From a virus, in the IMG/VR virus record IMGVR_UViG_2716884766_000001, positions 1 through 64,000 of that record: a stretch of DNA of 64,000 nucleotides; one strand, 5' to 3'. The notes beneath the pieces were generated by a model. The model did no database searches, had not been told where the DNA came from, and saw only the letters and a list, made by a program, of their open reading frames with translations. Numbering within the stretch: the stretch's first letter is position 1; the number at the start of each line of letters is the position of its first letter. Shown piece by piece: positions 1 to 23,300 of the stretch. The position numbers and the translations under genes are program-made.

Positions 1-539
1 ACTTCATGCTTCACACCACGTGGTGTACAAAACTCTCTCTTCAACCAGTTAGCAAACTTAACTGCGTCTAGATGATACCCAACATTTTTCTTTCCTGAGA
101 ATGATTCAAAGTCACTAATGGCAACTTTATTCTCTTTAATAATTCTCCAGTAAGGTGTCATCCATTCAGCAAACGATACCTCTGGATTACCATTGGTTGC
201 TCTGTAATGGAAGAACCAATCTAATATATCAGCATTGGCATTAGCAGGAGCAGCCCCATCATAGAAAGGATAATGGAAGTCTCCATACTCGCTAAAGTTT
301 TTAAAACATACGCTATACTTATATGTGGCTTCACACTCATCCATCCAGTTATCTGGGATGTTCATCTCAAGTGTCCAGTCACGAAAAAATTGAGTGGTTG
401 ATTCACCCACACCAATAGTAGGGATATCATCCGACTCAATTAGAGTAATCTTCTTTTTTGGAAATGATTTAATCAGAGTAGCAGCGGTCATCCATCCTGC
501 GGTACCGCCACCGACTATACAAATTGATTCAATTTTCAT
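1..539 (-). CDS. Tryptophan halogenase (PrnA-like flavin-dependent halogenase), runs off the left window edge
   Basis: Not in the ORF track. Manual translation from ATG at 539 gives MKIESICIVGGGTAGWMTAATL...ITLIESDDIPTIGVGESTT...ATYKYSVCFKNF...GYHLDAVKFANWL, i.e. the GGGTAGW FAD motif, IGVGEST and YHLDA motifs of the Trp halogenase family. Confidence 0.9.
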   Translation of the reverse strand, partial: MKIESICIVGGGTAGWMTAATLIKSFPKKKITLIESDDIPTIGVGESTTQFFRDWTLEMNIPDNWMDECEATYKYSVCFKNFSEYGDFHYPFYDGAAPANANADILDWFFHYRATNGNPEVSFAEWMTPYWRIIKENKVAISDFESFSGKKNVGYHLDAVKFANWLKREFCTPRGVKHE

Positions 540-548
540 AATGTAGGT

Positions 549-1067
549 TTATGTTCCCTTGTATACAGGTCTATTAGTTGTTGGATCTAATTCCCAACCA
601 GGTTCGTAAACAGTTTCGTTCTTGAACTTAGTTAGTTTCTGTCTCTTCTCAGCAGGAAGACTATTCCAAGCGGGTGCGTCTTCAGTACCCATCTCAAATT
701 CTTTCTTCCCTGCGTAGAACGTTGCATCCGCATCCGCAGCGTCCTGATTTACAATGCTTGTTTTTACAGCAGTTACGTGATCTTTCCATGTGGTAGTACC
801 ATTCATTTGATCCCAATACATCATATCGAGTTGCTCCTCGATTTGACCATATTCTACTTTTCTTTTCATCTGTTGGTTTCTTTCCAGTCTATCAGCACTG
901 TCAAAAAACTCACCATTATATAAGACCCACATGTTAGTGACGTTATCATCGTCACATGTGATCCATCTTAAAGGAGAATCATCTCCTTGATATACCTCGA
1001 ACTCTTCACCAGGCTCAACCACATCGGTGATGAATCCACGATAGTCTACTAAACAACTTTTAGCCAT
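549..1067 (-). CDS. Hypothetical protein, possible tail-fibre assembly/accessory protein
   Basis: 172 aa; YGQIEEQLDMMYWD...WKDHVTAVK motif resembles small proteins that follow fibre genes in marine phages; preceded by a late-promoter-like CTAAATA. Confidence 0.6.
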   Translation of the reverse strand: MAKSCLVDYRGFITDVVEPGEEFEVYQGDDSPLRWITCDDDNVTNMWVLYNGEFFDSADRLERNQQMKRKVEYGQIEEQLDMMYWDQMNGTTTWKDHVTAVKTSIVNQDAADADATFYAGKKEFEMGTEDAPAWNSLPAEKRQKLTKFKNETVYEPGWELDPTTNRPVYKGT

Positions 1068-2612: not shown

Positions 2613-3364
2613 TATTTAAACTCCCAGACTACAACCATACCGTGTTTGCCTTCAGGTCCTAAGTAGGATCCAAACCATCCGTTTGCTCCACCTGAGCCAG
2701 GTGCTGAACGAGCTTGATGGTTTCTAGAATAGTCTCCACCTCTAGGATGACCTCTGGCAGCACACCCACCGAAGAAACTATATCCTCCTGTTCCATTATA
2801 TCTTCCATGACAGCTTCCACCGCCACCGTACATATTAACATCACCACCAGCTCCAACTCCAGGAACTCCTCCTGAGTGTTGATAAGTTTGGTTTGCCCCA
2901 TCTCCACCAGTTGCTGACATGAATGAACCAAAGGATGATGAAGAACCCGCACCTGATCTACCAGAGTAGTAAGTTCCTGTACCACCAGTTCCAATAACAA
3001 CTGATATTGTAGCTGTACCAGTAACATTTAATATCTTCTCCGAAAATCCACCAGCTCCACCTGATTCACCATGTCCAGATGAACCGCCTCCTGCGGCTAC
3101 CAGACGTACCATAATCTGATTAACACCAGATGTTTTAGTATATGTACCTGATGATGTAAATACCTGCATCCCATTAGCACCATAGGTATTGTAAACGATA
3201 GATTCACCATCGCTACCTACTGCTTTATTAGTCTGTCCTGATGCTGAAGGCAAAACAGAGTTCTCACTAATAGTCTTCCCACCCAACGATAATTTTGTCG
3301 TGGAAGGGATTGTTATAACTGAACCTGAATATGCTCTCAGGTTATTAACATAAAGTCTTGACAT
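2612..3364 (-). CDS. Glycine-rich domain protein, paralogue 1 (putative fibre-tip/adhesin)
   Basis: 250 aa; same motifs; its start abuts the stop of the 4471-aa gene and its stop overlaps the next start (TAATG). Confidence 0.75.
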   Translation of the reverse strand: MSRLYVNNLRAYSGSVITIPSTTKLSLGGKTISENSVLPSASGQTNKAVGSDGESIVYNTYGANGMQVFTSSGTYTKTSGVNQIMVRLVAAGGGSSGHGESGGAGGFSEKILNVTGTATISVVIGTGGTGTYYSGRSGAGSSSSFGSFMSATGGDGANQTYQHSGGVPGVGAGGDVNMYGGGGSCHGRYNGTGGYSFFGGCAARGHPRGGDYSRNHQARSAPGSGGANGWFGSYLGPEGKHGMVVVWEFK

Positions 3365-6300
3365 TTAGATAATTACCCAACTACCGCCATTTGCGATTGA
3401 AATTGTATACCCATTGTTAACTGTTAGAGGACCAGCAGTGAAACATGAGTCTCCATTATTTATAGTGATACTCTCAGAGATAGATTGACGGTTTCTCTTT
3501 ATTATACCATATCTATCAACCCATTGCTTGTCTCCATTAGCACGAAGAACAACGGATCTCTGACCACTTGATACACCCACAGAACTTGAATCAATGTTAA
3601 GACCATTGTCTCCTCTGATCTCCATTCTGTAAGAGTTCTGAGTTGTGTCACTACCTGGTTCATAGAATGTCCATGTACCATAGTCACCATCACATGAAGC
3701 AATACTGTAGTCAGCATTGTTTCTCCAATAATAGTTATCACCACTACTATAGTATGTATGTGAGTCGTTAGCGAAGTAGAATCTTCTCTGACCTTCAGTG
3801 GTTGTGATCCACTCGTTAGTTGTTCTCTTCAAGTATGGAAGATCTAACGCATGGTATCCGTCAACCATATCAGCGTTCAAGTTAGAGTTAACTGTAGTAG
3901 ATGATATGTTGAATGGAGCAGTACCAGTTGAAACACGTGACCGTATTCTTCCGAAGAAGTGTACAGTAGAATCATTATAACGATACTTCATAACACGAGT
4001 ATCAGATCCACCATCTCTTCTGTAGAATGTTATGTCATCACCAGCTTCAGAGTTGAACGCACCAGGTGAGTTATCTCCATTGTAAGCGATACCACCACCA
4101 TAAGATAATGATTGTCCAACGTATAAGTATCCTGTACCTTGGTTATTACCAAATGCTTCAAAACCACACTGATAAGAGTCACCAGCTAATGCTCTAACAT
4201 ATGTGTTACCACTTCTACTTGTAGTACCAAAGGCAGCGTCTCCAGTAGATTGTAATGATATACCAGGATTGCTATCACCGATACCTAAACGTCCATTTCT
4301 GAAGTATACATTGTTGTATGATAGGTAAGAACCATTGTAACCGAATGAGTTACCATCATTACCAAATCTGATATAACCTTGACTTGAACTATTCTTACCT
4401 TTAATGGATAGAACGTTAGTGGTTGCCTTACCTACGGTAATACCATTACCATCACCAAGATTTAAAATTGATGTACCATTGTTAGTAAAGATACCTTGGT
4501 CACCGTGTATATCACTTACAAAGATATCACCAGATGATGTTCTACGTACAAGGTTGTTGCCCGCGTTGCCAGAGCTCTGAGTATAACCATCAACATAGTG
4601 TGCATCAAGTTGTGAGTTAACACCATCGTTACCCGCATGCCACACTGTGTTACTGTTGATAGTAACGCTACTGGACTTGATGTCCATGAGACCGTTACCA
4701 TTAGATGAGTTACCACCTGAGAACTCGAATCTTACATCATAGTTGTTTGATAGACCACCTGATCTTATATCAAAGTATGGTGTAGATACGATTCCTGCTC
4801 TACCCATTTCAAACAGAGCACCCTCAGCAGTATTGCTTAGAGCGAATACTTGTGAAGCACCTGTTGTTAATAGGTTAGATGATGTAACAGTCCACTTAGA
4901 GCCAGGGTTAGGACCGAAGACTCTGATGTCCTTGTTACCATAAGCACCAACGAATGTTATAGAACCAGTAACAACTGTATACTTAGCGTCTACAGTAGTA
5001 TCATTAGTCTCTGTGATACCACCTGGATCAATAGTGATTGTACCTATGTTATTTACAGCAGCATCATCAGCATATAGAGTGTATGTACCACCCGCTGAAA
5101 GGTTACCCGCAGGGTTTGAACCTGTTGCTGCGAAGAAGTTAGGAATGTATAATTGATATTTCTCTCCAGAGGATACAACGTAGAAGTTGTCAGCGACAAA
5201 CTTGTCTCTACCTAATAGAGTTGGTAAAGCTGGATCGCCAAGAACACCTACTGTTCTCTGGTCATGAATGTTATAACCTTGCTGATACCATAGACCTTGC
5301 TGATTATCTAAGAAGTCAGCGTTAGGACCTGGTAGTGTACCACGACGAGGTTCGTTAATGTCAGGAGGACCATCGTTCTCTGAATGCCATATCTTAGCCC
5401 AGTTACCATATACGTTAGATATGTCTGAGTTACCACGTAAGTATAGGTTGTCTGTAGCAGAGAATGATAACTGAGCAACAGAGTTGCCAGTAGCAGATCT
5501 TCTGAATGTTAATGTACCGTTTCTAGTTCCACCCGCGTCAGTTGGAATACCGTTAACGTTGTTAGATCTGAGTGCTAACTGAGCACCAACGTTTGCTGCT
5601 GATACGAGGTTAGCGTTAGCAGATGATGGAGCAGTTGTCTCAGCGAATAGTACGTTAGAGAAGTCAGCAGTACCAGATATGGATATAGCGTATGTGGTAT
5701 TTGCTAGACGTTGTGGATCAATAACACCTTCAACTAGGTTGGAAGCATTCTGATAGAACGCACCTTGGTTACCATCTAGTTTGTCAGCATTAAGTTCTGA
5801 TCCCGCACCTTGGTCGATGGATACTTCACCATTGTCTGTAACTCTGAATCCACCCTCTGTCTGATCACCAAGTGCTTGTTCAGCAACGTTCTTACGGAAC
5901 TTAGCAATACCGTAGTTACCAAAGACTGAACCACCAGCTTGTAATGTTGTTGGTGTAAGTTTGTTTGCCTTCTTAACGTCAATAGATGCGTTACCGAAGA
6001 ATCTAGGTAGAATACCCTTACGTGCGTTTAGTGTTGCTGCCTGTGATGGTGTACCTAGTTCATTTGGAACTGTTAGTACGAAGTCACCGTTATATCCAGT
6101 ACCTGGTGTAACCACAGATACACTGGTTATGACACCGAATGCTTGTGATGATGTTAGTGTTGATACACTGATCTCAACTGGTTGCTGTACTGTACCACCG
6201 AATAGAGGACCATCGAAGGTTAGTGTGTCACCACCTAAGTATCCAGATCCACCATTTAGTATGAGGTCAACTGATAGTGTACCTACACCGTCAGTAGTAA

Positions 6301-9300
6301 ATCTTATTTGAGCACCTAGACCCGCACCAGTTGTTGTAGATGGTGCTACGTCAAAGGTTGAGTTTGCTGTGTATGATTCAGGTGTCTGATTAAGGTTACT
6401 TACAGTAGCGATAATACCACCAGTAGTAACGTCAGCAACTGTGTAAGTAGCACGTGCTACTCCTGAGTCAGAGATAGGTACGTTACCACCCAACATTGGG
6501 ATGTTCTGATATGTACCGTTTGTATATCCTGTTCCTGCGACTGTTATGTCAACCTTCTCAATGTATGATGTGTCAGATAGACTTGACTCAGCAACCATAC
6601 AGTCAGCAGTTGAGAACTTGATAGACTGTATAACGTTCTGGTAAGAACTATCACCTCTTAAGAATGTGAATGAGTTCGCTATACCTGTTTTACCTAAACG
6701 CTCTGGGTCAATAGTACCCGCAACGATGTTAGATGCGTCAATGTTAGTTGATGATAACTGTGTCCAGTTAGCAGCGTCTTTAGCAGATGTGTTAACTGTT
6801 CTAATGACATCAACGATCTTCTTACGTTCGTAGTTACCAGATGTTAGCAGTGCGACTGCTGTTATAACTGTGTACTCGTTAGCGTTAACTGGAGTTACAT
6901 CATAGAAACCTGATGGAGATGAACCAGATGTAAAGTTAAGGTATACGATGTCACCTTGACTAAATCCATGATTGAGTTCTGTGACTGTGATATCGAATGT
7001 ATCATGTACGTATGTACCTGTAGCAACTGTCTGATTTGCTTCGTCTTGTAAGAAGTCAACGTTAGAGTACTTAATATTGTTCGCTAGGTCAACAGCTAAT
7101 CTTGCTTCAACTCTTGCTACATTACCTTGAGAAGTAGCAGTTGTACCACCTGTAGGAGCAGCAGTGAAGGTTACAGTAGGTTGTGTGAAGTATCCAGAAC
7201 CTTTGTTTGTAATTGTTATTGTGGATACTTGTCCGTTAACGATTGTACATGTCGCTGTTGCTTGTGTACCTGAACCGCCAGGTGCTGAGATTGTAATACC
7301 TGGTGGGTTTGTATATCCAGATCCAGTGTCGTCAACTAGAATGTCTCTAACAACACCTTGCTCATATCCTGTAATGATACCTTGAGCACCACTAGCAGAA
7401 CCAATAAGTATGTTGCCAGGTGTATATGTTAATGTTGAGTCAGGTGTGAACGCTACGAACATAGTGTCCAAATCATTCTCAAGAATGTAGGATATAGCAG
7501 CACCTTCAGTACGTAATGTATGAGTACCAGATCCTTGACTTGTTAGATTTCTAGCAGTACCACCTTGAGCATCAGATAGTGATGTAGCAAGTTTGATGTA
7601 GTCTGTGGTGTTAGCACCTACAGAGTGTACGATCACATAGTACTGAGCACCGTCTGCCAAGTTACCAATGTTACCAGTTCCTTGGAAGTAAGTTAGAATA
7701 TCACCTGTTGCTAGTCCGTGACCAGGTATTGTGATGTAGTTGTTAACTGTATCAACTGAAGCTGGTACGAATGTGAATGATGTAGATGTAGTTTCAATAG
7801 CGATGTCACCAGCTGATGCGTCTTCGATTGCTAGTCTCTCTGCTGTAGAAGCTACAGATGTAATATTGAATGGACGTAACGCAGGGATCTGTTCAATGTT
7901 GATCTTACCAGAGGTAGTCAACTGTACCAGAGCAGATGGAACAGCGTTAGTTGAGAATGGCTGGTTTAGGTATGGACCTAGTTTGTTAGTGATGTAATCC
8001 TTAACCGCTGCCTGTGTAGGTAGTAAGGAGTCAGAAGCGAACGCACCACCTAGTTCGTCACTGTCTGAAAATCCAGTGATAGTAATGGATCCACCAACAA
8101 TCTTAATAGATGAAAGTTCAGAGATACTAACAGTACCAACGAAACTAATAGAACCAGTTCTGTTGAAGATAGTAACGAAGTCTCCAACCTTGAAGTCACC
8201 AAACTCGTTAGTACCTGATGTATAAACCTGTCCGAATGATTCTTCAACAGCTTCGTTAGCAGGGATACCAACACCACCGTTTTGTGGTAGTGCTAAGTAT
8301 GTGTCACCCGCACCAACATATTCCCACGTATGTGAGGAAGAGTTACATACAGATGGTCTGTGTAATCTTATAGTCTTACCAACCAGAGTATCTAAGTTAC
8401 CCTGATCATATGATACTTCTGTATTTGTTGCGGTCTCATTTAGAGAAATTCCTAGACCGTCGTTTGTTGTAATATTAGCAGTAACCTGTGTACCGATAGA
8501 ACCAGATAACTTCTCTACACCTAGAATAAAGTATTCTTTAGCAGGGTCAGTATTAGTGTAACCATCAAACTTGATGATGTAATCTTCAATCGGGAAGTTA
8601 GTTAGTGTTGATCCACCAACCTCGATGATCTGACGACCTGTCTGAGCACCATTGTTATCAGTTTGGTTAACAACGTTTGTAACTGTACCTATGTCAAACT
8701 CATAAGCATCCTTTCTAAATCCAGTTGCTTTAAGAGCACGAGTACCGAAGTTAGACGCTGAGTTAGTTAGTGATGCATATCCACCTGACTGTACGATAAC
8801 TCCGTCTCCACCGAAGATAACGAACACAGACACCAACTGAGTATATCCATCGTTAAGAATGTTGTATCCAACACCACCACCGACTGAGATGATCGTGAAT
8901 GCGTTGGCAACCATTGACTTACCCTGTTTAGGGAAGACAGCACGTTCTCTACCGTTAGCATCTTGATAGACACCTGGTCTGGGAACGTTAGGTTCAGCAA
9001 CTTTAGCACCGTCAATCTCAGCACCTGACGCTCCTAAGAAGGAGATCAATGATGCGTTCTGAATATAAGGTGATGCCTCGATGACTGGTAGGTCAAGTAA
9101 GTCACCTAACATAGGAACTATTTTAAGACCACTGTCATCTTTAAGCAGTGTGCTTGGTTCAGTTAAGGTAACGCTACTTAGTGATGTAGGTGTAGCAAGA
9201 GCATTATCTAAAATTGTATGTAATGCTGTTAGAGCATTGATAGCAGCTCCACACTCAGGTTGATTATGATCAACTGTAGATGATGCGTTATGGAATGGTG

Positions 9301-12300
9301 CTATAGATGTAAACTTAGCTTCTGGTAACTGGTTACGTATAGCAAGGACTGCCATGTCCTTTGCCTTCTGGTATACAGCACGTGTTTGAGCAACTTCGTT
9401 GTTAACGTAGTTGATATTTGTTCCGAGAATATATTTGCTTGCGGCTTCAATAGTCTTCTTGTTACCACCATATCTTAAGTCATACATCCATGAACGTAGA
9501 ACATGTCTTACGTCATCAATACATTGATCATCAGATACAGGATATGTTCTAGCGACACCATCAAGATTACCAGGTGTACCTGTAGTACCGATAGCTTGTG
9601 TAATTATACCAGTTAATGTTGTGATAGAAGAAGCAACGTCAGCACAACGGTTAACGTATGATGCTGTTCTGGTTACAGATGATAGACTTCCTGTGTCAAT
9701 CGCAACCTCAACGATATTCATTAAGGTAGTGATAGAAGATATAACCACGTTACAGATTGGTAGACCTGTATCCTGTGTGATAGTTAGATCTTTAACCTGT
9801 GCTATAGATGTATGTCCACCTGTTACTACAGTCTCGTTCTGGAATACTTCGATAGCAACTTTCTGTGCCTCTCGTAAAGCATATATTGAATGATGTTCTT
9901 CACCTTCTAGATGAGCACCAGTAACATACATGTTAGCAGCGTCATAGGTAAAGTCGTTTCCACCCATTGCTAGGTTCCAAGAAACAACCTGTAGAATATC
10001 TACAACGTCATCCTTACAGTCAACGTTAGTACCTGATACTTCAACACCGTTAGAAGTAGCAGAGATGAATCTGTGTGGGAAGTCACCACCACTCTTAACA
10101 ACGACTCTGTTGATACATCCTGTTGTAGCACTTACGAATGTATGTGCTGTGGTGTTAGTAGGTGTAGTTCCTTGTAAAGCATTGAACTCAAATGTGTCAG
10201 CAGTTACACGCTCAATCTTAACAGACTTGTTGAATATAGGATCGCCAGGTCTAGGATAAGCATGGTTAGTTACGTTACTGTCTTGAGCACAAGTGAATAC
10301 GATACTCTCTTGATCTACCTTGATATAGTCTCCTGCGATCAAACCATGACCAACTTTGGTTACTGTCATCCAACCAGTAGTTGAGTTGTAATCAACAGTT
10401 GTAGGAGTTACTCCTGTAGCAGGAACAAAGGTGTGATCAGTTACGTTAGTAGAAGGTGTCTGACTTAGAACATTAAAGTTTAGAGTTGTGTCTTTAACAC
10501 TGATACCATTAGCAGTAGCAGATACGAATGCGTGAGTAGTCTCGTTTGAAGATGTTGCGATACAAACCTCGAATGTATCTTTATTAACAACCTTGACATG
10601 TCTCCACTCATTACTGTCTGGGTCTTTTTGAATGATTCCATTTGCTACAGCAGATACAAATACGTGTGTAGTAGTGTTAGTAGATGGAGTTACATCTAAA
10701 GTCTTAAATGAGAATGTATCGTTACTTACAGCAGTAACAGGAATGAATATGCCACTGATAGGATCAGTTGATCTTGGATATGCGTGTTCAGTTGCGTCAC
10801 CATCTTGTCCACATGTAAATGTGATAGCACCATCTTTAACCTTGATGTACTCACCTTTCTTAATACCGTGACCAGCTACAGTGACTGTTACTACACCAGT
10901 AGCAGTGTTGTAACTAGCATCTGTTGGTGTAAATTTCTTTCTCTCTGCTCTTGGATATGAATGGTTAGTAGCATTGCTGTCATGATCACATGTAAATGTG
11001 ATTGAGTCATCAGCAAACTTAACCATGGAGTCTTCTCTCAATCCATGATCAGCAGACGTAATTGTTATCTTACCTTCTGTTGGTACATATACTGCGTTAG
11101 TTGCTGTTAATGTTGAATCAGTAATAGATGTAATTTCAACAGCAGTATCATATAGTGGGTCTTTCTTGATTGATAGACCATTTGTTGTAGCAGATACAAA
11201 TGTATGAGCAGTTGTGTTGGTTGAAGGAATGTTACCTACACCCAATACCTGTACGTTAAATGTATTAGTAGAAACGTTTGATACAGTTAACCATCTGTCA
11301 TTAGCATAGTCTGTTGCTCTTGGATATGTATGGTTAGTACCATTATTATCCTCCATACAAGTGAATGTTAATGAGTCAGTAGCAAACTTAACCTGATCTC
11401 CATTAGCAAGACCATGGTTAGATGCTGTAACTATCATCACACCTGTAGAACCTTGATAGTTAGCACTCTCAACTGTGTCTGTGTCTACAGCAGATCTTGG
11501 ATAGTATTTGGTTGATACGTTACCATCTTGTGTACATGTGAACCCTATTGAATCAGGAGCAAGTCTCATGTATGTTCCTGCCTTAAAGTTGTTAGTACCA
11601 ATGTTGACAGACATAGCCCCTGTATTTGGGTTATATGCTGCGTCTCTTACATCGTACCCGTCAACAGTTGTAGGTCCTACATTGATGTCAATAGTATTAA
11701 CACTAGCAGATACAACAGGTGACCAACCATTACCATTAGCAGGGTCGGTTGCTCTTGGATATGTGTGAGTGGTATTACCATCATCCATGTCACATGTCCA
11801 AGTCATGCTATCAGTAGCAATCTTAAGATACTTGGAAGTGTCAATACCGTGACTTAAGATAACAGCGTCAGCTAAAGCATTCTGGAATACATGAGTAGAT
11901 GTATCACTAGAAGCACCAACGTTAACTGTAATAGTTGAACCAGATACTGCTGTAATTGCTAGGTCTTGCTCGTAAGCCCTATCTCTCTTCTTCTCTAATC
12001 CATTTGCTACAGCAGATACAAATGTATGTGTTGTAGTGTTTGGTGATATTGCTACGTTAACTTCAAATCCTAATCCTGTAGTGTTAGAAACTTCTAACCA
12101 CTTACCAATAACAGGATCTGTATCACGTGGATATGCGTGACTACCTGTACCAGCTTGACAGTCAAATACGATTGACTCTTCTTTGAATCTGATCCAGTCA
12201 CCATCAGTCAATCCATGACCAGCTGTTGTTGTTACGCTTAGTACACCAGTACCAGGTGTGTATACTGCCCCAGAAATTGTTGAGGTATCAATAGTAGTAC

Positions 12301-15300
12301 GTGGATAATAGTGATCAGTAGACTGTCCATCAAGATCACATCTGAAGTTAAGTGATCCTGTTTTAATTCTAATCTTATCGTTAGTCGTTAATGTATGAGT
12401 ACCGATATTAAGTTCTAGTAAACCTGAAGAAGGAGTGAATGAAGCAGCTGATACTTGTTTAACATCAGTATTAACTGTTACTGTCATCAATCCAGTAGCA
12501 GGATTATATTCTGCGTGTTGAGCAGTTCTCTTTTGTGGAGATGGAACGTTGAATGTTCTAGGTGTAGTCTTCTTGATAGCGTTTAGACTATCGTTAAGAA
12601 TAGCACTGTGTATGATTTCAAATAATGAATCTACAGCAGCTTTTACCTCTACACAGTCAGCAGCTGTATGTCTACCAGCTGAGTTTGATACATCATGTGT
12701 AATAGTGAGATCAAATGTCTGTGTTAATCCATGATCACCTCTTACCACAACCTCGTTGTTAGCAAGAACTAATTTACAAATTTCTCTAGCATGTTCGATA
12801 CAACGAACTGATTGGAACTCCTCGTCATCTAGGTGAGGTGTACCAACATAATACTTCGCAGCATCCCATACTTTATTGTTACCACCGTGCTGTACGTTGA
12901 AAGCAACAGCATCAACAATATCTACGATGTCATCTATACAATCTTGTCCGTTACCTGTTGGAACGTGTAGTGTGGGATCTTCAGCAAGTTCCCAAGCATA
13001 TGCCTCAGCACCGATAAACTCTCTGTTAGCAATTAGTAGATCGTGAGCATCAACTACCTTGTTATTAGCAACTTCAAATCCAAAGTCAGCATTCATTCTA
13101 CCGACTGCTATGTCAGCAATGAACTGTCTGTTAGCCCATATTAGGTTACGAGCATCAGCATGTTTGTTACTTTGACCTGATCCTGCTGCGTCAGGAGTAA
13201 TTGTAAAGTCTCTAATCTGTGTAAGACCATGACTACCCTGTACAGTAACAGGATCATTTCTCATGATCTGTATAGCAATGTCTCTTGCGTGGTTGAATGT
13301 CTCTACAGATTCATTCTCTTCACCTACGACATGAGAACCATCAACGTAATACTTAGCACCATCCCATACTTGGTCGTTACCACCGTATGCTAGGTTATAT
13401 CCCATTGCCTCACAGTAGTCAACAATATCATCAATACATGCTTGGTTACCAGTAGGAACCTGATATGATGGGTTGTTGGCAAGCATTCTGTCTACTGCTT
13501 CCTGAGCAATAAACTGTTTGTTAGCAAGGATTAGAGATGTACCATCAGCAGATCTATCTGAAGGAGGTACACTGTTTGGTGTCTGCCATGGAGCAGGGAC
13601 TGTTATTGTAATATCTCCACTGTCTGTGCTAGCACCACCTAAGATAATGGTAGCAGTTCTGTGGTCAGCAACATCATCTATGATGTATGAACCATCAGGA
13701 GTAGCACCACTGAATACTATACTATATGCGTTCTTACCAAATACACCATGACCTCTTGGGCAGACAACTGTCATTACATTACCAGAGCATGTGTATGTAC
13801 CCTTTCTTGTAAATGTGGCAGAAGTTCCTGCGTTATTTAATTTCTTGACGTGAGCATATGACTCTAAAGCTATAAAGTCAACGTTGTTATTGATTGTCTC
13901 AGCACCGTCTCTTTGCTTAGACATCTCTTTGAAGTCAGCACCAAACTCAACCTTCTCAAATGCGTAAGGAGAGTTCCTTAATGACATCAAAGCATAGTTT
14001 GTAGCAGAACAAACCTGTTGGTCTCCAGATGGATCAAAGTCTGTAGCAAACTTAGAACATGAACCTCTGACTACAAACTTAAGTGAGTAACCATCAGCAC
14101 GTTCTATACGATGTGTAACGTATTTTCTTCCGTTGAAGTCACCAAGGTTATCAAAGATAGCAGCACTACCAGATCTAGTAACACTGTCTGATCCTCTGAT
14201 TATAAAGTATACTTCGTTTGTTGATGCGTTATATCTAGCAACACCAGCTCCTAAGTTAGAACTGCCACCCAAAATAGTAGCAAAATCACTCTGTGCTTGT
14301 GCTAGTGTACCAGCTCTATATGTCGCAACATGGAATGATTTATCTTGATGTTGACTACCAGTACCACTAAAGTTAAGACGAATACCAACACCCTTGTCAG
14401 CTGGAGGAGCATCAGAAATACTGATCAACGTTGGCCAGATCACATTCATCTTAGAAGGATCTGTATTAGCAAACGTTACTGTAAGAGTATTGCCACTCTG
14501 GGTGTATGTACCGCTAGCACTGGTACCAAAGTCTATAGGACTATATGGTAGACCGTAGATATGAACTTCTTGTCCTGCTTCGTAGTCATGACCAACAAAA
14601 GGAATACCTTCTATTGTTCTGGAAGCAGAAGTTACCTCAAAGGAAATACCTCTGTAAGTCTCTTGTGTGTTTAACGAACTATCGACTTGGTTGATGTCAA
14701 TAACGTTAAGTGCTTTCTCGAATCTATGATAACCTTTACCTATATCCGTGATAGGAAGGATAACAGGATCATCAGCACCAGATATATCAATATTGGTAGC
14801 ATCGGCTTGAGTATTTGCGACTTGGAAATAGTTGTTGTCTACTTTATAGACGTAGTATAGACCATTATTTGTAAGACCACCTATGTCCCCTGCCTTTGAA
14901 GAACGATAGTATACACCGTTACCAGTGAATAAACCATGCTTAGGGAAATAGAATGTATTATCTTTTACACTAATTCTACATGTGAAGAGTGTGTGTTCGT
15001 CTCCTGTACCAGGATCACCTAGGTCTCTTCTACCTGTGGTTGTTTGTAAGTTAAGTGCGTTAGCAGCAGTATCATATAATTCTAATGAATTGTCATCTAT
15101 AACTCTAACAAAATATGAGTCACCAGATGTTAAACCAGCTGGAGCAGTGCCACCTTCATTCTCTACTTTATATTCTACTTTGAAACCAGTCTTTAATCTG
15201 TGTAGAGGAACAGATATTTGATTTGTAGTAGCATCTACGATAGTAGCATTACTACCATCGAAACGTAATGTCTCTGTCTCAGAGTTAATTACCCACTGAT

Positions 15301-16780
15301 ACCTTTGGTGTTTGATAACCTCAGTTTCAGGTCTTTGTGATTCTCTATCAGCAACGTCGAGTGAGTCAGATGGTGAAGCACCTGTCTTAACGATGTTAGC
15401 GTAGACATCAGCATAGTATAATCTTTCAGCGAGCTGGAAGGTTGATTCATCATCATCCATCAGTACCGTGATAGTACCAGATGAGTATGGTGATGCTTGA
15501 GGACCTGTAAACGTGACAGCTTCAATGATCGCTCTAGCAGAAGATGATCCACCCTCTACAGCGTATCCAACAAGTAATGTAGTATTGTCACCTGTGTGGT
15601 TCTCAAATGTAATAGCAAAGATGTTTCTACCTTTGTTTTCTAGACCTGGTGAGAACTCAAATGGTTCTAGGTCTGGTTCATACATTAATCTCTGCTTATC
15701 GTCAAACACATAAGCATACTTCCATGTATAGTCAGGAGATCCATTAGCATCTAAGTGGTCTCTGAATACAACACCAGAACAATACGTCTCGTTTGACGCT
15801 TTGATCATGTGTCTGTCCATGTTTAATGGACGTAGGATAACTCTTCTTAAGTTATCTCCAATCAGTGAACAGTTAAATGGTAGAGAGATCGGGTTGTCTT
15901 CTACATAATCACCACCTGAACAGATGATAGAAACATATTCAGGAGTCTGTGTGTCTTGCTGTAAACTATAAGCTATCTGTGCTGCTTTCTTAATTGTACG
16001 AACTGGTTTAGCAGCTGATCTACCATCGTTAGCATCATCACCAATACCAGCTACAGATGATACGTAAACACGACCACCATTGTCAGCAGTAGCAACGTCA
16101 TATACAAACTTGGTAGTAGCAATTCTATTATTCTGTGTCTGACGAGGAGGGTTGTCAGCAGTTGGATAGTAGATTGTACCAAAGTCAGAAGCTGTTGGGT
16201 CTGTCTCTTCAAAGTTAATTAAATTAGGACCTCTAAGGTCTAGTCCCTTAGTAACAAACTCGTTAGTAACGTCTAGGTTTCTAATTTGAGCAGTATCTGA
16301 GATGATAGATCTTGTAGTTCTGATCTGTCCTTCAACGTCAAGGTCAAACTCAGGATTGGTGTTGTTAATACCAACACGAACGTTACCTGTAGCACTCTTG
16401 GTTATGAATATAGCGTCTTCTTCATCAGCACCTGATCCGATACTGAACTCCATCTTGTCAGATGCGTTAAAAGTTAATGATCTAACACTTCTGTATGATA
16501 TTGATGTGGCAGCTTCAATAAAGTTTGTACCTGTACCTGTAATTGTAAATGTATCTTCGTCTACGACAGTAATATTATAATTTCCAGCTGTAAAAGTTCT
16601 TAGTAAACTATCTTGACCTGGCTTAACGTATAAGAGATCGTTGTTGTTTAACTTGTGAGCAATAGATGTAACAGTAACTATACCATTCGCACGTCCATAC
16701 GTAGCACTTGTCCACGGACCCTGCGGGACCTGACCTGTACCCTCTATTCTCTGTTGCGAAGAACTCTGCCTAAGTGTCAT
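3365..16780 (-). CDS. Giant tail-fibre / virion structural protein (4471 aa) with nested repeat domains
   Basis: N-terminal pectin-lyase-like beta-helix start (VYVS...DGRSAAKPVRTIKKA); nested helical and beta repeats; G.GY...P hairpin repeats; fibre-shaft motifs LNADKLDG, NADFLD, LDAHYVDG, LNADMVDG; C-terminal AGPLTVNNG...GGSWVII. Confidence 0.85.
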   Translation of the reverse strand: MTLRQSSSQQRIEGTGQVPQGPWTSATYGRANGIVTVTSIAHKLNNNDLLYVKPGQDSLLRTFTAGNYNITVVDEDTFTITGTGTNFIEAATSISYRSVRSLTFNASDKMEFSIGSGADEEDAIFITKSATGNVRVGINNTNPEFDLDVEGQIRTTRSIISDTAQIRNLDVTNEFVTKGLDLRGPNLINFEETDPTASDFGTIYYPTADNPPRQTQNNRIATTKFVYDVATADNGGRVYVSSVAGIGDDANDGRSAAKPVRTIKKAAQIAYSLQQDTQTPEYVSIICSGGDYVEDNPISLPFNCSLIGDNLRRVILRPLNMDRHMIKASNETYCSGVVFRDHLDANGSPDYTWKYAYVFDDKQRLMYEPDLEPFEFSPGLENKGRNIFAITFENHTGDNTTLLVGYAVEGGSSSARAIIEAVTFTGPQASPYSSGTITVLMDDDESTFQLAERLYYADVYANIVKTGASPSDSLDVADRESQRPETEVIKHQRYQWVINSETETLRFDGSNATIVDATTNQISVPLHRLKTGFKVEYKVENEGGTAPAGLTSGDSYFVRVIDDNSLELYDTAANALNLQTTTGRRDLGDPGTGDEHTLFTCRISVKDNTFYFPKHGLFTGNGVYYRSSKAGDIGGLTNNGLYYVYKVDNNYFQVANTQADATNIDISGADDPVILPITDIGKGYHRFEKALNVIDINQVDSSLNTQETYRGISFEVTSASRTIEGIPFVGHDYEAGQEVHIYGLPYSPIDFGTSASGTYTQSGNTLTVTFANTDPSKMNVIWPTLISISDAPPADKGVGIRLNFSGTGSQHQDKSFHVATYRAGTLAQAQSDFATILGGSSNLGAGVARYNASTNEVYFIIRGSDSVTRSGSAAIFDNLGDFNGRKYVTHRIERADGYSLKFVVRGSCSKFATDFDPSGDQQVCSATNYALMSLRNSPYAFEKVEFGADFKEMSKQRDGAETINNNVDFIALESYAHVKKLNNAGTSATFTRKGTYTCSGNVMTVVCPRGHGVFGKNAYSIVFSGATPDGSYIIDDVADHRTATIILGGASTDSGDITITVPAPWQTPNSVPPSDRSADGTSLILANKQFIAQEAVDRMLANNPSYQVPTGNQACIDDIVDYCEAMGYNLAYGGNDQVWDGAKYYVDGSHVVGEENESVETFNHARDIAIQIMRNDPVTVQGSHGLTQIRDFTITPDAAGSGQSNKHADARNLIWANRQFIADIAVGRMNADFGFEVANNKVVDAHDLLIANREFIGAEAYAWELAEDPTLHVPTGNGQDCIDDIVDIVDAVAFNVQHGGNNKVWDAAKYYVGTPHLDDEEFQSVRCIEHAREICKLVLANNEVVVRGDHGLTQTFDLTITHDVSNSAGRHTAADCVEVKAAVDSLFEIIHSAILNDSLNAIKKTTPRTFNVPSPQKRTAQHAEYNPATGLMTVTVNTDVKQVSAASFTPSSGLLELNIGTHTLTTNDKIRIKTGSLNFRCDLDGQSTDHYYPRTTIDTSTISGAVYTPGTGVLSVTTTAGHGLTDGDWIRFKEESIVFDCQAGTGSHAYPRDTDPVIGKWLEVSNTTGLGFEVNVAISPNTTTHTFVSAVANGLEKKRDRAYEQDLAITAVSGSTITVNVGASSDTSTHVFQNALADAVILSHGIDTSKYLKIATDSMTWTCDMDDGNTTHTYPRATDPANGNGWSPVVSASVNTIDINVGPTTVDGYDVRDAAYNPNTGAMSVNIGTNNFKAGTYMRLAPDSIGFTCTQDGNVSTKYYPRSAVDTDTVESANYQGSTGVMIVTASNHGLANGDQVKFATDSLTFTCMEDNNGTNHTYPRATDYANDRWLTVSNVSTNTFNVQVLGVGNIPSTNTTAHTFVSATTNGLSIKKDPLYDTAVEITSITDSTLTATNAVYVPTEGKITITSADHGLREDSMVKFADDSITFTCDHDSNATNHSYPRAERKKFTPTDASYNTATGVVTVTVAGHGIKKGEYIKVKDGAITFTCGQDGDATEHAYPRSTDPISGIFIPVTAVSNDTFSFKTLDVTPSTNTTTHVFVSAVANGIIQKDPDSNEWRHVKVVNKDTFEVCIATSSNETTHAFVSATANGISVKDTTLNFNVLSQTPSTNVTDHTFVPATGVTPTTVDYNSTTGWMTVTKVGHGLIAGDYIKVDQESIVFTCAQDSNVTNHAYPRPGDPIFNKSVKIERVTADTFEFNALQGTTPTNTTAHTFVSATTGCINRVVVKSGGDFPHRFISATSNGVEVSGTNVDCKDDVVDILQVVSWNLAMGGNDFTYDAANMYVTGAHLEGEEHHSIYALREAQKVAIEVFQNETVVTGGHTSIAQVKDLTITQDTGLPICNVVISSITTLMNIVEVAIDTGSLSSVTRTASYVNRCADVASSITTLTGIITQAIGTTGTPGNLDGVARTYPVSDDQCIDDVRHVLRSWMYDLRYGGNKKTIEAASKYILGTNINYVNNEVAQTRAVYQKAKDMAVLAIRNQLPEAKFTSIAPFHNASSTVDHNQPECGAAINALTALHTILDNALATPTSLSSVTLTEPSTLLKDDSGLKIVPMLGDLLDLPVIEASPYIQNASLISFLGASGAEIDGAKVAEPNVPRPGVYQDANGRERAVFPKQGKSMVANAFTIISVGGGVGYNILNDGYTQLVSVFVIFGGDGVIVQSGGYASLTNSASNFGTRALKATGFRKDAYEFDIGTVTNVVNQTDNNGAQTGRQIIEVGGSTLTNFPIEDYIIKFDGYTNTDPAKEYFILGVEKLSGSIGTQVTANITTNDGLGISLNETATNTEVSYDQGNLDTLVGKTIRLHRPSVCNSSSHTWEYVGAGDTYLALPQNGGVGIPANEAVEESFGQVYTSGTNEFGDFKVGDFVTIFNRTGSISFVGTVSISELSSIKIVGGSITITGFSDSDELGGAFASDSLLPTQAAVKDYITNKLGPYLNQPFSTNAVPSALVQLTTSGKINIEQIPALRPFNITSVASTAERLAIEDASAGDIAIETTSTSFTFVPASVDTVNNYITIPGHGLATGDILTYFQGTGNIGNLADGAQYYVIVHSVGANTTDYIKLATSLSDAQGGTARNLTSQGSGTHTLRTEGAAISYILENDLDTMFVAFTPDSTLTYTPGNILIGSASGAQGIITGYEQGVVRDILVDDTGSGYTNPPGITISAPGGSGTQATATCTIVNGQVSTITITNKGSGYFTQPTVTFTAAPTGGTTATSQGNVARVEARLAVDLANNIKYSNVDFLQDEANQTVATGTYVHDTFDITVTELNHGFSQGDIVYLNFTSGSSPSGFYDVTPVNANEYTVITAVALLTSGNYERKKIVDVIRTVNTSAKDAANWTQLSSTNIDASNIVAGTIDPERLGKTGIANSFTFLRGDSSYQNVIQSIKFSTADCMVAESSLSDTSYIEKVDITVAGTGYTNGTYQNIPMLGGNVPISDSGVARATYTVADVTTGGIIATVSNLNQTPESYTANSTFDVAPSTTTGAGLGAQIRFTTDGVGTLSVDLILNGGSGYLGGDTLTFDGPLFGGTVQQPVEISVSTLTSSQAFGVITSVSVVTPGTGYNGDFVLTVPNELGTPSQAATLNARKGILPRFFGNASIDVKKANKLTPTTLQAGGSVFGNYGIAKFRKNVAEQALGDQTEGGFRVTDNGEVSIDQGAGSELNADKLDGNQGAFYQNASNLVEGVIDPQRLANTTYAISISGTADFSNVLFAETTAPSSANANLVSAANVGAQLALRSNNVNGIPTDAGGTRNGTLTFRRSATGNSVAQLSFSATDNLYLRGNSDISNVYGNWAKIWHSENDGPPDINEPRRGTLPGPNADFLDNQQGLWYQQGYNIHDQRTVGVLGDPALPTLLGRDKFVADNFYVVSSGEKYQLYIPNFFAATGSNPAGNLSAGGTYTLYADDAAVNNIGTITIDPGGITETNDTTVDAKYTVVTGSITFVGAYGNKDIRVFGPNPGSKWTVTSSNLLTTGASQVFALSNTAEGALFEMGRAGIVSTPYFDIRSGGLSNNYDVRFEFSGGNSSNGNGLMDIKSSSVTINSNTVWHAGNDGVNSQLDAHYVDGYTQSSGNAGNNLVRRTSSGDIFVSDIHGDQGIFTNNGTSILNLGDGNGITVGKATTNVLSIKGKNSSSQGYIRFGNDGNSFGYNGSYLSYNNVYFRNGRLGIGDSNPGISLQSTGDAAFGTTSRSGNTYVRALAGDSYQCGFEAFGNNQGTGYLYVGQSLSYGGGIAYNGDNSPGAFNSEAGDDITFYRRDGGSDTRVMKYRYNDSTVHFFGRIRSRVSTGTAPFNISSTTVNSNLNADMVDGYHALDLPYLKRTTNEWITTTEGQRRFYFANDSHTYYSSGDNYYWRNNADYSIASCDGDYGTWTFYEPGSDTTQNSYRMEIRGDNGLNIDSSSVGVSSGQRSVVLRANGDKQWVDRYGIIKRNRQSISESITINNGDSCFTAGPLTVNNGYTISIANGGSWVII
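9188..13915 (-). repeat. Four nested ~140-aa helical repeats (D[AG]..LI..N..FIA / C.DD / GGN / C..V...I)
   Basis: Four N-terminal motifs, four C.DD-GGN cores and four terminal Cys helices appear in bracket-like rather than tandem order. Coordinates are approximate. Confidence 0.8.
10031..12524 (-). repeat. Eight nested ~100-aa beta repeats (A.Y.P.TG / HGL / FTC..D / H.YPR..DP / H.FVSA..NG)
   Basis: Eight F/W-x-C motifs and eight YPR motifs in the translation, with motif order showing insertion of copies into copies. Coordinates are approximate. Confidence 0.85.
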
Positions 16781-17353: not shown

Positions 17354-17361
17354 TATTTATA
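17354..17361 (-). promoter_or_regulatory. T4 late promoter TATAAATA
   Basis: Plus strand TATTTATA at 17354-17361; contains the TAA stop of the 2377-aa gene; about 20 nt upstream of the ATG at 17333. Confidence 0.8.
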
Positions 17362-20300
17362 CCTTAACTTTAGTTGTAGTAAAGCGTCCAGTGAAAGTTG
17401 TTGAACTGCTAGCCTGTGATGATTTATTTAACGAGATAGTTACATCATCAGCGTTGACAGTAACAGTAGCATCCATTAGATCATTATCAGATGTAATGGA
17501 GTTTGTGATAGTGGCATGTGCCACAGTTCCTGCTGCTCCACATATAGATGTAACTTCAAACATATGAACTTTACCATCATTACTTTCAAGAGTAATAAGT
17601 GTCTTAGCACCTTTATATACTGTCTTGTCAAATTGTGCGATAGATGCAGAAGTAGTGAATGATGTAAGCACTCCACCTTCTACTCTTGCTGAATCTAATT
17701 CAACAAATGTAGCAGTAGAATCTAGGACTGTTAAGTAATTTGTTGCTCCACCCGCTTCATAATTTCTGTTGACTTTGAGTCCTGCCTTCGCAGCACTAGA
17801 ATCTAATGACAAGAACTGCTTGTCATTATTCATATTAAAGCGAAGTTCGCTTTGTAAAGCACTGATCTTACCGTGAGCAACGTCAGCATTAGTTAATGTT
17901 GCTACAGTGAATGTTATGTCAGTACCAGCTCCACCACCTAGAAGACCACCACCAATAGTGATTACCTCTCCGATTTCATAATTTATACCACCAGTGTTAA
18001 TAGTGATAGTGGTAAGAGTACCGTTCGCGTCAGTTGTAAGATCAAAGGTAGCACCTGATCCTGCGAACTCAGATACACCAGCTACACCTGTGAAACTTCC
18101 TGATGGATCATAAGCAGCTGCTGTCGCATTGAATGTTCCATCGTTAGCACCAAGTGTACCGTCATTAAAGGTAGCGATTGTACCTGACACCAACTGATGC
18201 TTCATGAAGAATCCACCAGTTACCTCAACGTCTTTACTTCCTCTAACTTTTAATAGTGATACACCTTTTCTTTGTACGTCTAATGTATCTGTTCCTGTTG
18301 TACCATTGATGGAGAGTGTACCCTCTACATCCATCAATTTAGTAGTCTTTAATATAAACTTATTAACATCTATTGATAGAGAATTAAATCCTGCGTTATA
18401 GAACTCGAATGTATCTTCGTCAGAACCAGGTGTTGTCTCAGTTAATATGTAAGTATCTTGGTCAACGTCACGTACACCACCAAGTGATACGTAGTCGATA
18501 CCATTGTATCCTTCAAACTGTGATGTTGTAGTATTGTATCTGATACCACCAAGGTAGGTGTCATCAGCACCTGGTCTATTATTTGTATTACCAACTGGAA
18601 CTATAAGTGTACCAGTAGTATCGCAAAGAATATTTTTAGCAGGTCCTGGTTTGATTGCTATACCTGTACCAGCTACATCAACTATAACAACTTGCTGTAC
18701 AGAGTCAGTTCCTATAACAGCAGCATCAAGAGTTACAGTGTCACCCGCTTCGTAATTTTTACCACCCGCATTAACGACAACAGATGTAATAGAACTACTT
18801 ACGATTGTGACATCAACAGTACCACCAGATCCTTTTCCAGTTCCTGTTGCTGTAATTGCTACACCTGTAAATGTACCATCAGTAAATGTAGTACCAGATC
18901 CAGTTGTGTTTAGTGTAACTAACGATCCAAAACTATTTGATACACCTGAAGCAGTGTTCTGTAGAACTGCGTCAGTAATCTTTAATCTACCACCTGACTG
19001 TAAGTAACCTGAAGTTTCAAGGTCACCTGTACCCATCGCAACGTTGAATACAGTATTACCACCATTATCAACTTTAAAGTTTCTACCAACAAGACCTGTA
19101 AGAGTTATTCCACCATTTCCTTTTGGTGTAAATGTAATATCTACGTCAGCATCAGTACCAATCGCTGATATAGATGCGTCATTATTAATCTGTAAACCTT
19201 TAGCAGATGTACCAGTGATGATAGTTGCGTTAGCAACGTCAACTTTTAATACAGGACTAGCAGTTGTTGTATCAACACCAACTTGGAAGTCATTTCCTAT
19301 ATTCAAAGATGTACCATATACTGCCTTCTCTACACCAGCTATTGCTATACCAAACTCATCAGGATTCTTATGGAAGAGACCTGTTGTGAGTGAAGTTGCG
19401 AAATTTAAACTTGGAGCAGCAGCTGTACCATCAGCAAGATTTGCTGTTACGTTTGTAATTGCTACGTTACCTACAGTCTGTGTTAGATCACCTTCTAGAG
19501 TTAAGTTACCTGTTTGTGTGGTGTCACCAGTTACAGTCTGGGTACCTGTGATTGATAATGTATCAGCAGCTTCATCACCAAGAGTCATATTACCCTTGAC
19601 TACTAAGTCGCCATCAGCAGTGATGTTACCAGTTGTTGTTATATGTCCAAACTCACCTTCTACTTGAAAGACTGTTGCTTGCTTACCAATACTTAATGTA
19701 CCCTCGTATAGGGTTGGGTCTTTAGTACCAGCTACCTTAAATGCGTCAGATATAAGAGCAGAGTCATGTGTAAACTCAAATCTATCAGCACTGGTTACAC
19801 CACCAACTGTTAATTGGAATGGGTTACCACTTGTAGCAGGTCCTGATTCGTTACCAGAGACACGTGGTATTAATGTTTGTCCTACGTTATATCCAAAACC
19901 ACCATCAGAGATAGTTACGTCTTTAATGAAACCAACTTTAGTAACAGTGTACTGGAATCCAGAACCACTACCACCAACATCTCCTTGATCTACAGAAAGA
20001 ACGTCTCCTACAGTATAAGGTCCTCCATCAAGACTAATATTAGTTACTTCGTTTATAACAGTTGTATTAGCAGTCAACTGCATATCAAGACCGCTTCCAG
20101 TACCACCTATATCAGCTTGTCTTGCTTGAATGTCATTTCCTACTTGATAGTTTTCACCTTGTGCGTTACTAAAGACTTGTGTAACCTGTCCACCTTCAAC
20201 AGTAACATCTATTGATAATCCTGTACCATAACTTCCTGCTGAACCAGAGTTGATAGTAACACTAGCACCCATGTTAGCATGACTAGAACAGATATAATCT

Positions 20301-23300
20301 GCTGTCTCTCCTGCTGTGCCTGGTCTCAATACAACGTCAGTATATGCTCCTGCTGAGCCAGGTGTTCCTACAGAGATTGAAACGATATCAGTAGCTAGAG
20401 TTCCACCATCTTCTCTACCCATGGTGATTGGGTGTCCTGCGTTAGAGGAATCACTCTGATCAAAACGATAGGTGTTGCCCTCTGTCATAGTGAGAGCTGC
20501 CTGTGTGCTACCATTGATGACATATACGTCATCAGGAGGAGGTGTGCCAGGATTTGATATTACTGTAACAGTATATGTTTGTGTTGGGTTGTTGTAAACA
20601 CTTACTGAATCATATTGTCCGTCTGTATATCCACTACCACCGTTTGATACGTTGACTACCCAACCTGGTACTCTAAAGTCAGCACTAGCAGTCTGTGTTG
20701 GTTCTGTACCACCACTTACGAATGTAAAGTTAACACCTTGATAAAAGCCTGGTGTGTAGGCACTACCATTATTTGTTATGTTACCAGTCAGTGACTGGAT
20801 ATTAACTGATGTCTCGGCATCTCCACCAGCTCCACCAATAAGTGTCAAAGTAGGAGCAGTGTCGTAACCAACACCAGGACCAGTTATCTCAATACCAGAT
20901 AGTCTACCGTTTCTCTTACTGAAAGCTGGTTGTAGAACAGCATCAGTAATAGGATTACCACCCTGTATTAGAATCGTAGGAGTAAAGTTATAACCCGCAC
21001 CAACGTTTGTTATGTTGACAGCACCGATTGGGAAACCGATAGTTGCTGTAGCAGAACCGCCACCACCTGTACTATCTCCTGTAGCATTTGCTATTGAAAC
21101 AGTTGGAGCAGATGTATATCCACTACCTCTAGAGTTAATAGCAATATTATTAATAGATCTACCACAATAGACTTGAAGAGAAGCAGCGTTTGCTCCTACG
21201 TCTTCTGAGAAAGTAATTGAAGGTAGAGAGTTACCATCATATAATGTACCTTGCTCAGTAATAGTGATGCCTGTGATTACACCAGCTGATGCTGTAAGAG
21301 TTGCTTCAGCGTTAACACCCTTCAATGAGTGTGACTCAGCACTACTGGAATCAGCAGATGGTGATAGAGATATAGCAGAACCACCTTGTGATGTTGCTAG
21401 TCCAAAGTTATCACCCGACTTATTAACAACGTAATAGATTGTACCAGAGCTTAATCCAATACTCTCAGATCCTGAGTTATTGTCATAAACGATTCTTAGG
21501 TTGTTAGTAAATGGGTTGTTAGGAAGAGTAAATGTAGTACCAGATATATCACTGAAAGTATCAAATGTAACCTGATTAGGTTCTTCAATAGTGATAGTTG
21601 GTGTGCCTGTATAAGTTGATCCACCGTCACTAATATCAATTCTGTTGATTACACCATACTGTTCAAGAACTGCTGTAGCATCAGGGTTTGTAGTACCCGC
21701 AGTGAATGTAATATCAGGAGGTGTAGTATAAAGTTGACCAGGACTGGTTACAGTAACAGTCTTCAGTGAACCATCGTTAGTGTCGATAGTACAAGATGCC
21801 TGACCGTTAACAGCAGGGTTTGTATCTAATGTTAGGGTTGATGAACCGCCAGTATATCCATCACCTGTATTATTAACAGTGACTGATGATAACTTTTCAG
21901 TAGATATGAGAAGGTTCGTATCGGATAATAGTCCATAAGCGTTGAATCCACCTCTTCGTTGCTGTTGACCGAGGAAGATGTCAATAGAACCAGTTTGAGC
22001 AGTGTTGAAACTACCTACCTTGTTTTGGTCAAAGTAAGCGTTCTCGTTAAATATTACCTCACCGTTGAATGTAATGTCTTCGTTACCCGCAGGGTCGATT
22101 AGTAGAGCACCACTTGTAGTAGAGAAAGTGTTACCCGCTAGTCTTATATTACCTGTCTCGATGTATGCAGGATAGATGTTTGTAGTACCAGTGGAGTCAG
22201 ATAATCCAATACTGGTTGCTTGCTGTGATGATGATGTTGACTGGAAGTTAACGTTACCTGTTTCTTGGTCAACTAAGAATACCTCACCGACTCTGAAGTC
22301 ACCCTTCTGGTCAGTAGATGAGTAGAATACTCTACCACCATTTGTTTCTACGACTTCGTTAGCTTGGTTTGCTAGAGATGCGTCATTGGTAAAGTCCTTG
22401 CCAGAACCAATGTACATGAAGTTGTGTGCTGATAGAATTAGTTTACAACCATTACCATCAGAAACAGCACCCTTTAAACCATAGATGTTAGCAGATGCTA
22501 TAGACTTAAGTTCACAACCGAACTCACTATAGTCAACAAGTGCTATACCTGTAGCAGAGTCACCACCTGTAGAACGAACATCCTTTGGAGAAGGAGTGTC
22601 ACTAAATGAACTTGCTTGATCTGTACCATTAAAATGTATTAAAAGAACTGTATTAACATCTGTACCATACTCTGAAGATGGAGCAGTAAAGTTACTTGTA
22701 AATCTTGCTGTACCGTGACTGACTCTAACTTCATCTATACGTCCTGTGAAGAAGTCACCACCGACTGTACCATGATTAGAACCAATGTTTAATGGTTTTG
22801 TATTACCATAGTTTCTATTATCTGTATCTCCTCCTGCTCCTGTGATTGAAGTACCATCTAAAAATACCTTTGTAGTACCGTTGTAACGTGCTAGAGCAAC
22901 GTGATGCCAAGTGTTGAGGGATAATGTACCTCCACTTAGATGTTCTGTAGTATCAGTACTAAACTTTAATGTACCACCTGTTTGATATAATCTAGGAGCT
23001 ACATCAGAATCAGATGTTCTGAAGTCAAAGATTGTAGAAGTTCCAGTGGTAGAAGTAGCATAAACAAATGCTTCTACAGCAAAGTTTGCTGTACCAAAAC
23101 CAAAGTCTTCAACAGTCTCAATACTAACAAAGTCACCAGTACCATCAAGTTCTAGTGACGCAGTTCCAAATTTTTTAATTCCAGTATCCAGTCTAGCGTC
23201 AGCGTTAGGAGTAAGAGTCTTACCCTCTTCTAGTGCTGTAGTAAACTGTCCTTCACCTTTTCCGTTTAGGTATATGTAATTACCATCATTGGATGTGATA

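Follow-up and report, generated by a model that had tools for sequence, protein, structure and literature searches.

A giant cyanophage tail-fibre protein in which a beta-helix is probably interrupted at one turn by an insert of about 2,200 residues

Two neighbouring giant proteins in a marine virus raise a question of architecture. They share a series of motifs in the same order, and two of these motifs lie almost side by side in one protein and thousands of nucleotides apart in the other; how, then, is a common scaffold accommodated in both? The window, that is, the whole 64,000-nucleotide stretch of DNA analysed (positions 1 to 64,000 of IMG/VR record IMGVR_UViG_2716884766_000001), derives from a Prochlorococcus virus, a T4-like cyanomyovirus, and covers the region that encodes its baseplate and tail fibres. 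Among cultured viruses, the Prochlorococcus phages P-HM1, P-HM2 and MED4-213 are nearest to it, with ~80-82% DNA identity in patches. The genes of interest all lie on the minus strand, in the order gp6-like wedge, P0004, P0003, P0002, P0001 and three ~250-aa paralogues:

50278-52152, minus strand: gp6-like wedge protein
minus strand: the giant proteins P0004 (4940 aa), P0003 (2229 aa), P0002 (2377 aa) and P0001 (4471 aa)
17357..24490, minus strand: P0002, the 2377-aa paralogue, with scaffold (aa 68-800) uninterrupted at the P0001 insertion site
3365..16780, minus strand: P0001, the 4471-aa tail-fibre protein, family phrog_5342 (from the ORF list and PHROG matches)
3368..8080, minus strand: distal fibre of P0001, aa 2901-4471 (phrog_5342 profile positions 2370-2992, E 6e-258)

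Each of the five segments of P0001 hits the phrog_5342 profile (E 1.9e-77 to 6.4e-258), and P-HM1, P-HM2 and MED4-213 have orthologues that carry the names tail fiber or YapH; a Pfam search with P0001 gave no match. The orthologues of P0002 carry the annotation gp7 baseplate wedge. Directly downstream of P0001, the three ~250-aa paralogues stand in tandem (window 1093-3364) and match phrog_863 (tail fiber assembly) as well as the C ends of tail-fibre families. The phage contig itself sits within a 1.6-Mb assembly of 32 contigs, rated 95% complete and about the size of a small cyanobacterial genome, and the phage DNA in it may reflect either an infected cell or co-binning.

The shared motifs were located individually. 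P0001 has VYVS at aa 238, YAYV at aa 355 (nt 15718), SPYIQ at aa 2570 (nt 9073), HTWEYVG at aa 2817, ANEAVE at aa 2841 and GDFKVG at aa 2861, and P0002 has LFVA at aa 74, YAFV at aa 185 (nt 23938), SAYVQ at aa 198 (nt 23899), HNFMYIG at aa 689 and GDFRVG at aa 730. A preliminary description of this DNA had reported such a collinear set for the 4471-aa and 2377-aa proteins, and each motif was found where it had been claimed. That description had further put the spacing between YA[YF]V and S[PA]Y[IV]Q at about 10 aa in the one protein and about 6.6 kb in the other, which our measurements bear out: 9 residues separate them in P0002 and 2,210 residues (6.6 kb) in P0001. It had bounded the intervening segment at 9083-15700; the 15700 end agrees with our analysis, and the other end is set here at 9077, so that the insert comprises aa 361-2568. 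On the two sides of the insert, YA[YF]V and SPY[IV]Q are invariant or nearly so in both families. The similarity between P0001 and P0002 is far beyond chance, but a pairwise BLASTP comparison sees only two blocks (N block, E 4e-5; C block, E 1e-8), and profiles are therefore needed for any claim about the region as a whole. The parts of P0001 that concern us, together with their counterpart in P0002, are as follows:

15701..16084, minus strand: beta-helix N piece, aa 233-360, with the first strand, cap helix and first rungs, the YAYV strand being last
9077..15700, minus strand: the whole insert, aa 361-2568, about 2,208 aa, between the scaffold pieces
13571..15700, minus strand: insert part 1, aa 361-1070, small beta barrels strung in a chain
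12539..13570, minus strand: insert part 2, aa 1071-1414, two helical units (A1 and A2) resembling globins or phycobiliproteins
10028..12538, minus strand: insert part 3, aa 1415-2251, an array of ~60-aa beta repeats, about 12 in number, that share the motif HxYPR
9077..10027, minus strand: insert part 4, aa 2252-2568, two further helical units (A3 and A4), homologues of A1/A2
8081..9076, minus strand: beta-helix C piece, aa 2569-2900, from the SPYIQ strand, with a ~110-aa barrel at a second site
23897..23923, minus strand: 9-residue turn in P0002 (aa 190-198), the counterpart of the insertion site

Profile comparison indicates that the two pieces flanking the insert are complementary parts of one scaffold. 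From IMG/VR we obtained 81 P1-type loci with both pieces, of which 35 were aligned (alignment A2); the insert columns were deleted and the result was compared by hhalign with a 159-sequence scaffold alignment. The insert-deleted family gave one collinear match (Prob 99.6%, E 9.9e-25, 382 aligned columns, query 2-473 on template 15-421), continuing across the junction as the preliminary description had anticipated for the spliced sequence. Taken alone, the N piece matches scaffold positions 15-133 (E 9e-16) and the C piece positions 128-421 (E 1.5e-12), so the pieces abut in one loop. A HMMER search of the whole protein with the scaffold HMM (E 9.8e-19) placed aa 233-364 on hmm positions 7-129 (i-E 1.4e-11) and aa 2815-2899 on positions 339-421, and found no further scaffold piece in P0001, insert included. 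It follows from the collinear match and the HMMER pieces that P0001 contains exactly one copy of the scaffold, cut between positions ~128 and ~133. At the level of sequence the host is thus interrupted and its pieces are complementary, as in the A1-B-A2 architecture of domain insertions (PMC13114784). When mapped on the scaffold, the N piece accounts for the cap helix plus roughly one third of the rungs but lacks a C cap, and the C piece lacks the N-terminal cap helix (residues 43-49 of the P0002 model described below); judged from sequence, neither half is a full, capped helix.

The identity of the scaffold comes from its uninterrupted form. An AlphaFold2 model of P0002 aa 61-800, built with an 83-row alignment, reached a mean pLDDT of 91.4 and a pTM of 0.79. 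Compared by VIA-align with 48,161 solved chains, it matched more than 30 right-handed parallel beta-helix chains at Z 17-21; the alignments comprised 226-275 residues and extended over model positions 10..690. The best match was the tailspike of cyanophage Pam1 (7eea_A; Z 21.3, rmsd 3.6, 251 aligned residues over model positions 1..680, 16% identity), and pectate lyase 1jrg, polygalacturonase 1bhe and phi29 gp12 3gq7 followed at Z 19-20; LKA1 gp49 (4ru4_A) was found at Z 17.1 and, by Foldseek, CBA120 TSP2 (5w6p) at E 7e-7. On the strength of this model we are highly confident that the P0002 scaffold is a continuous right-handed parallel beta-helix (pectin-lyase-like fold), a shared fold that by itself says nothing on function. 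P0001 is tied to the beta-helix family solely through the scaffold profile (the HMMER and hhalign matches, E 9.8e-19 and 9.9e-25, respectively); neither the scaffold nor the C piece found a match when searched against PDB sequences. P0002 also scores above the cut-off for Pfam DUF1565 (PF07602; 28.4 bits against 20.3), but only over profile positions 7-59 of 257.

Within the P0002 model, YAFV forms the strand 125-129 and SAYVQ opens the strand 139-147, so that the insertion site corresponds to the turn 130-138. The same model offers an example of how the helix tolerates cargo, as P0002 has an insert of its own at a second site:

22625..23542, minus strand: P0002 insert at the second site, aa ~317-622, comprising a barrel, an HGL module and a LamG domain

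This segment matches Pfam Laminin_G_3 (E 6e-17) and is missing from bare relatives; on either side of it, hmmsearch places P0002 aa 68-321 and aa 623-800 on the scaffold. Model residues 361-573 match LamG and pentraxin folds (Z 17-18) and the helix match spans around them, both host pieces at this site forming one compact domain. The model thus shows a predicted helix that is continuous around an insert of ~300 residues (LamG plus barrel, model ~245-575).

The scaffold is frequent among the tail and baseplate proteins of cyanophages, and the wider family accepts inserts at several places. Searching IMG/VR with P0002 aa 61-800 recovered orthologues together with 'bare' versions of ~465 aa without the LamG region, and when 1.84 billion proteins were searched with a profile built from 15 such bare copies (profile A4), 11,645 representative clusters matched at E<=1e-3. 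In the domain table of the best 150 of these 11,645 clusters the scaffold is often interrupted, with natural inserts at several sites. The main one, profile positions ~236-316, is used by 115 of the 159 scaffold relatives, and many members carry further inserts of about 150-390 aa there; rare sites lie near positions 117-119, 150 and 182 among the best 150 relatives, none of which uses the site interrupted in P0001. Several relatives (P0133, P0141-P0147, P0150 and P0152) lack profile positions 236-315, from which it follows that the small beta-barrel found there (P0001 aa ~2690-2810) is an insertion too; the minimal helix is about 380 aa. In P0026 the turn just before the YAF strand holds an insert of ~337 aa with FG-GAP-like-looking repeats, and in P0100 the same turn holds ~83 aa with an HGL-type module. 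These two cases imply that both turns flanking that strand accept cargo.

The preliminary description had proposed that the whole nested repeat region hangs off a single loop of the scaffold, and this is supported: the halves are complementary and the site is a strand-to-strand turn in the P0002 model. We consider it likely, from the profiles and the model together, that P0001 contains one beta-helix of ~460 residues, cut at a single turn by the ~2,200-residue insert, with its halves packed as one helix. The packing of both halves in P0001 we infer from homology and from neither piece being a complete capped helix. In such a protein the chain would leave the beta-helix after the YAYV strand, run through the beta-barrel modules, two globin-like units, the ~12 beta repeats and two more helical units, and re-enter the helix at the SPYIQ strand.

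An insert is present in all 81 P1-type loci with both halves, always in one open reading frame, in frame and stop-free, and its length ranges from 728 to 3137 aa (measured between anchors at P0001 aa 371 and 2561, which gives 2189 for the window). Even relatives whose N piece is 90-99% identical have inserts of 1347-1353, 2185, 2399 or 3137 aa. One close relative, L004 (flanks 86-91% identical), lacks exactly aa 1415-2251, so that the equivalent of residues 233-1414 of the window protein runs on into that of 2252-2891. The absence of the whole ~837-aa beta array between A2 and A3 indicates that this array acts as a single nested module that can be removed; among relatives, the insert grows or shrinks by entire modules. 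Identity is 66-99% in the flanks as against 32-93% in the insert segments, the beta array being the most variable; no part of the region is better conserved than the two scaffold halves, the N piece being 46-99% identical across the 81 loci.

Self-BLAST of P0001 in 120-aa windows revealed the internal repeats, both the beta array, where the positions of its motif agree, and the helical units: A1 and A2 are 50% identical to each other (1083-1199 on 1248-1365), and both match 2247-2338 and 2414-2483. C-x-D-D and GGN recur unchanged in every one of the four units. Unit A3 is the equivalent of residues 724-850 in the model of a shorter homologue, L008, where a domain of mixed pLDDT (residues 697-844) matches allophycocyanin 8or7_A at Z 11.2 and phycoerythrin 5aqd_M at Z 9.8 (145 aligned residues, 20% identity), as well as other globin-like proteins at Z 8-10; Foldseek pairs it with phycobiliproteins at probabilities of 0.99-1.0 and E 0.04-0.05. 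Pfam Phycobiliprotein (PF00502) was approached by one unit of the four, below the cut-off (15.6 against 22.2 bits, E 0.016). A four-unit profile found no match among PDB sequences, and an ESM Atlas search with the helical units returned no usable match. Similar helical units occur in P0004. Elsewhere on the same contig, beyond the window, there are matches to a CpeT-like bilin-lyase family (G000:C3:78032-78184, PF06206, E 4e-8) and to a ferredoxin-dependent bilin reductase (G000:C3:96157-96708, PF05996, E 4e-16), and these genes are candidate partners of the Cys-bearing helical units.

The split form was also modelled directly, using the shortest natural split homologue (L008:7448-11047), which has a 728-aa insert. 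AlphaFold2 was run on 1200 aa with the 35-row alignment A2, which holds two main clades only, and the segment ended about 45 residues short of the scaffold C end. With this shallow alignment the helix pieces (1-156, 857-1000 and 1121-1200) had block-mean pLDDT values of about 24-59, mostly <55. Compared with solved chains, the model gave no beta-helix match, its helix pieces being low-confidence, and Foldseek returned a weak match to GH110 (E 4e-3); these outcomes count neither for nor against stacking of the pieces. The insert domains, unlike the helix pieces, were confident: residues 157-670, equivalent to insert part 1, had block means mostly of 73-93 and weakly resembled EF-Tu domain-II-like and FNR-like barrels (Z 6-7), and the second-site barrel (1001-1120) had block means of 73-89, at least 81 in 11 of its 12 blocks.

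That this monomer model gave no confident packing of the halves is compatible with a 3D domain swap, in which the N piece of one subunit would complete the C piece of its neighbour in an oligomeric fibre. Phage tailspikes and fibres, which are typically trimers, are among the structural neighbours of the scaffold, and the long insert would make swapping sterically easy. However, the paralogue P0002 confidently folds as a monomeric helix, and in known tailspike trimers each chain builds its own beta-helix, so we regard a swap as unlikely.

The low pLDDT of both halves in the L008 model could also be read as a sign that they are now independent, the N piece serving as a short capped adaptor and the C piece as a truncated helix, in which case P0001 would be linear and not branched; the serial chain of modules in the first part of the insert would suit such an arrangement. 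The scaffold mapping speaks against this, as the boundaries abut within 5 positions, without loss or overlap, and both pieces are incomplete (in the N piece, only some third of the rungs and a missing C cap; in the C piece, a missing N cap helix). Moreover, YA[YF]V and SPY[IV]Q are kept invariant or nearly so, as expected if the two strands still pair, and both halves are the best-conserved parts of the region, which makes independence distinctly improbable. Finally, an artefact or removable element is barely credible, because 81 independent contigs, together with the cultured phages P-HM1, P-HM2, MED4-213, S-PM2 and S-RSM4, show this architecture in a single unbroken frame, which rejects an assembly chimera or a two-gene fusion, the insert modules match virion-protein PHROGs, and an intein-like spliced segment is rejected by an insert that starts FDDKQRL and ends ...LPVIEA before SPYIQ, with no Cys/Ser/Thr first and no terminal His-Asn.

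If, as we favour, the halves of P0001 pack as a single helix, they would form a rigid hub on the fibre axis, between the N-terminal attachment part and the distal fibre, and the insert would be a side arm off this hub. Since the arm would be anchored by its two ends at a single turn, modules could be gained or lost while the length and register of the load-bearing fibre stayed unchanged, and the fast evolution of the arm would be accounted for. A broader proposal, which we see as evenly balanced between right and wrong, is that P0001 and its relatives are truly branched single-polypeptide fibres, in which an arm of up to 3,137 residues (about 340 kDa), leaving the hub and returning to it at one 9-residue turn and exchanging whole modules between near-identical phages, may act as a free-evolving display platform with phycobiliprotein-like units bearing a conserved Cys-x-x-Asp.

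Tailspikes and depolymerases such as the P22 tailspike (with its 'dorsal fin'), LKA1 gp49 and CBA120 TSP2 are well-known cases of side domains emerging from turns of a right-handed beta-helix. To our knowledge, such side domains measure tens to about 150 residues and consist of a single domain. The P0001 family differs from these in that its insert is 728-3137 residues long, multi-domain and internally nested, and five to seven times the size of its host. The Pam1 tailspike receptor-binding domain (7eea), the best match to the scaffold, is a cyanophage tail protein too, the comparison being one of fold only. Closer to hand, P0002 and its relatives have the same scaffold and also carry loop cargo (LamG plus barrel), but at the other site (~236-316) and of about 300 aa.

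Outside phages, the Si3 insertion in the trigger loop of RpoC2, in cyanobacterial RNA polymerase, is a case of recursive multi-domain insertion with six-level nesting (PMC13114784). Si3 resembles the P0001 insert in being a large, nested, multi-domain insertion in one host loop; it differs in sitting in a 1280-residue protein and in being made of sandwich-barrel hybrid motifs, whereas the P0001 insert is length-polymorphic among close relatives. In a survey of domain insertions the median insert was 115 aa and the median host 199 aa, with the insert smaller than the host in 77% of events (PMC13114784). The P0001 family lies far outside such sizes, a host of ~460 residues carrying 728-3137 at one turn. 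A literature search found no paper describing the architecture seen here, which is a known kind of side-domain insertion taken to an extreme of size and length polymorphism.

If the branched-fibre reading is true, the arm in this family would be among the largest single-loop insertions described in any protein. The family provides a natural map of cargo-accepting sites on a tailspike-type beta-helix and an explanation of how cyanophage fibre genes attain 13 kb. Looking forward, the boundary at 9077-15700 lets these giant proteins be divided into units that can be folded, as an aid to structure prediction, to cryo-EM fitting and to work on host range.
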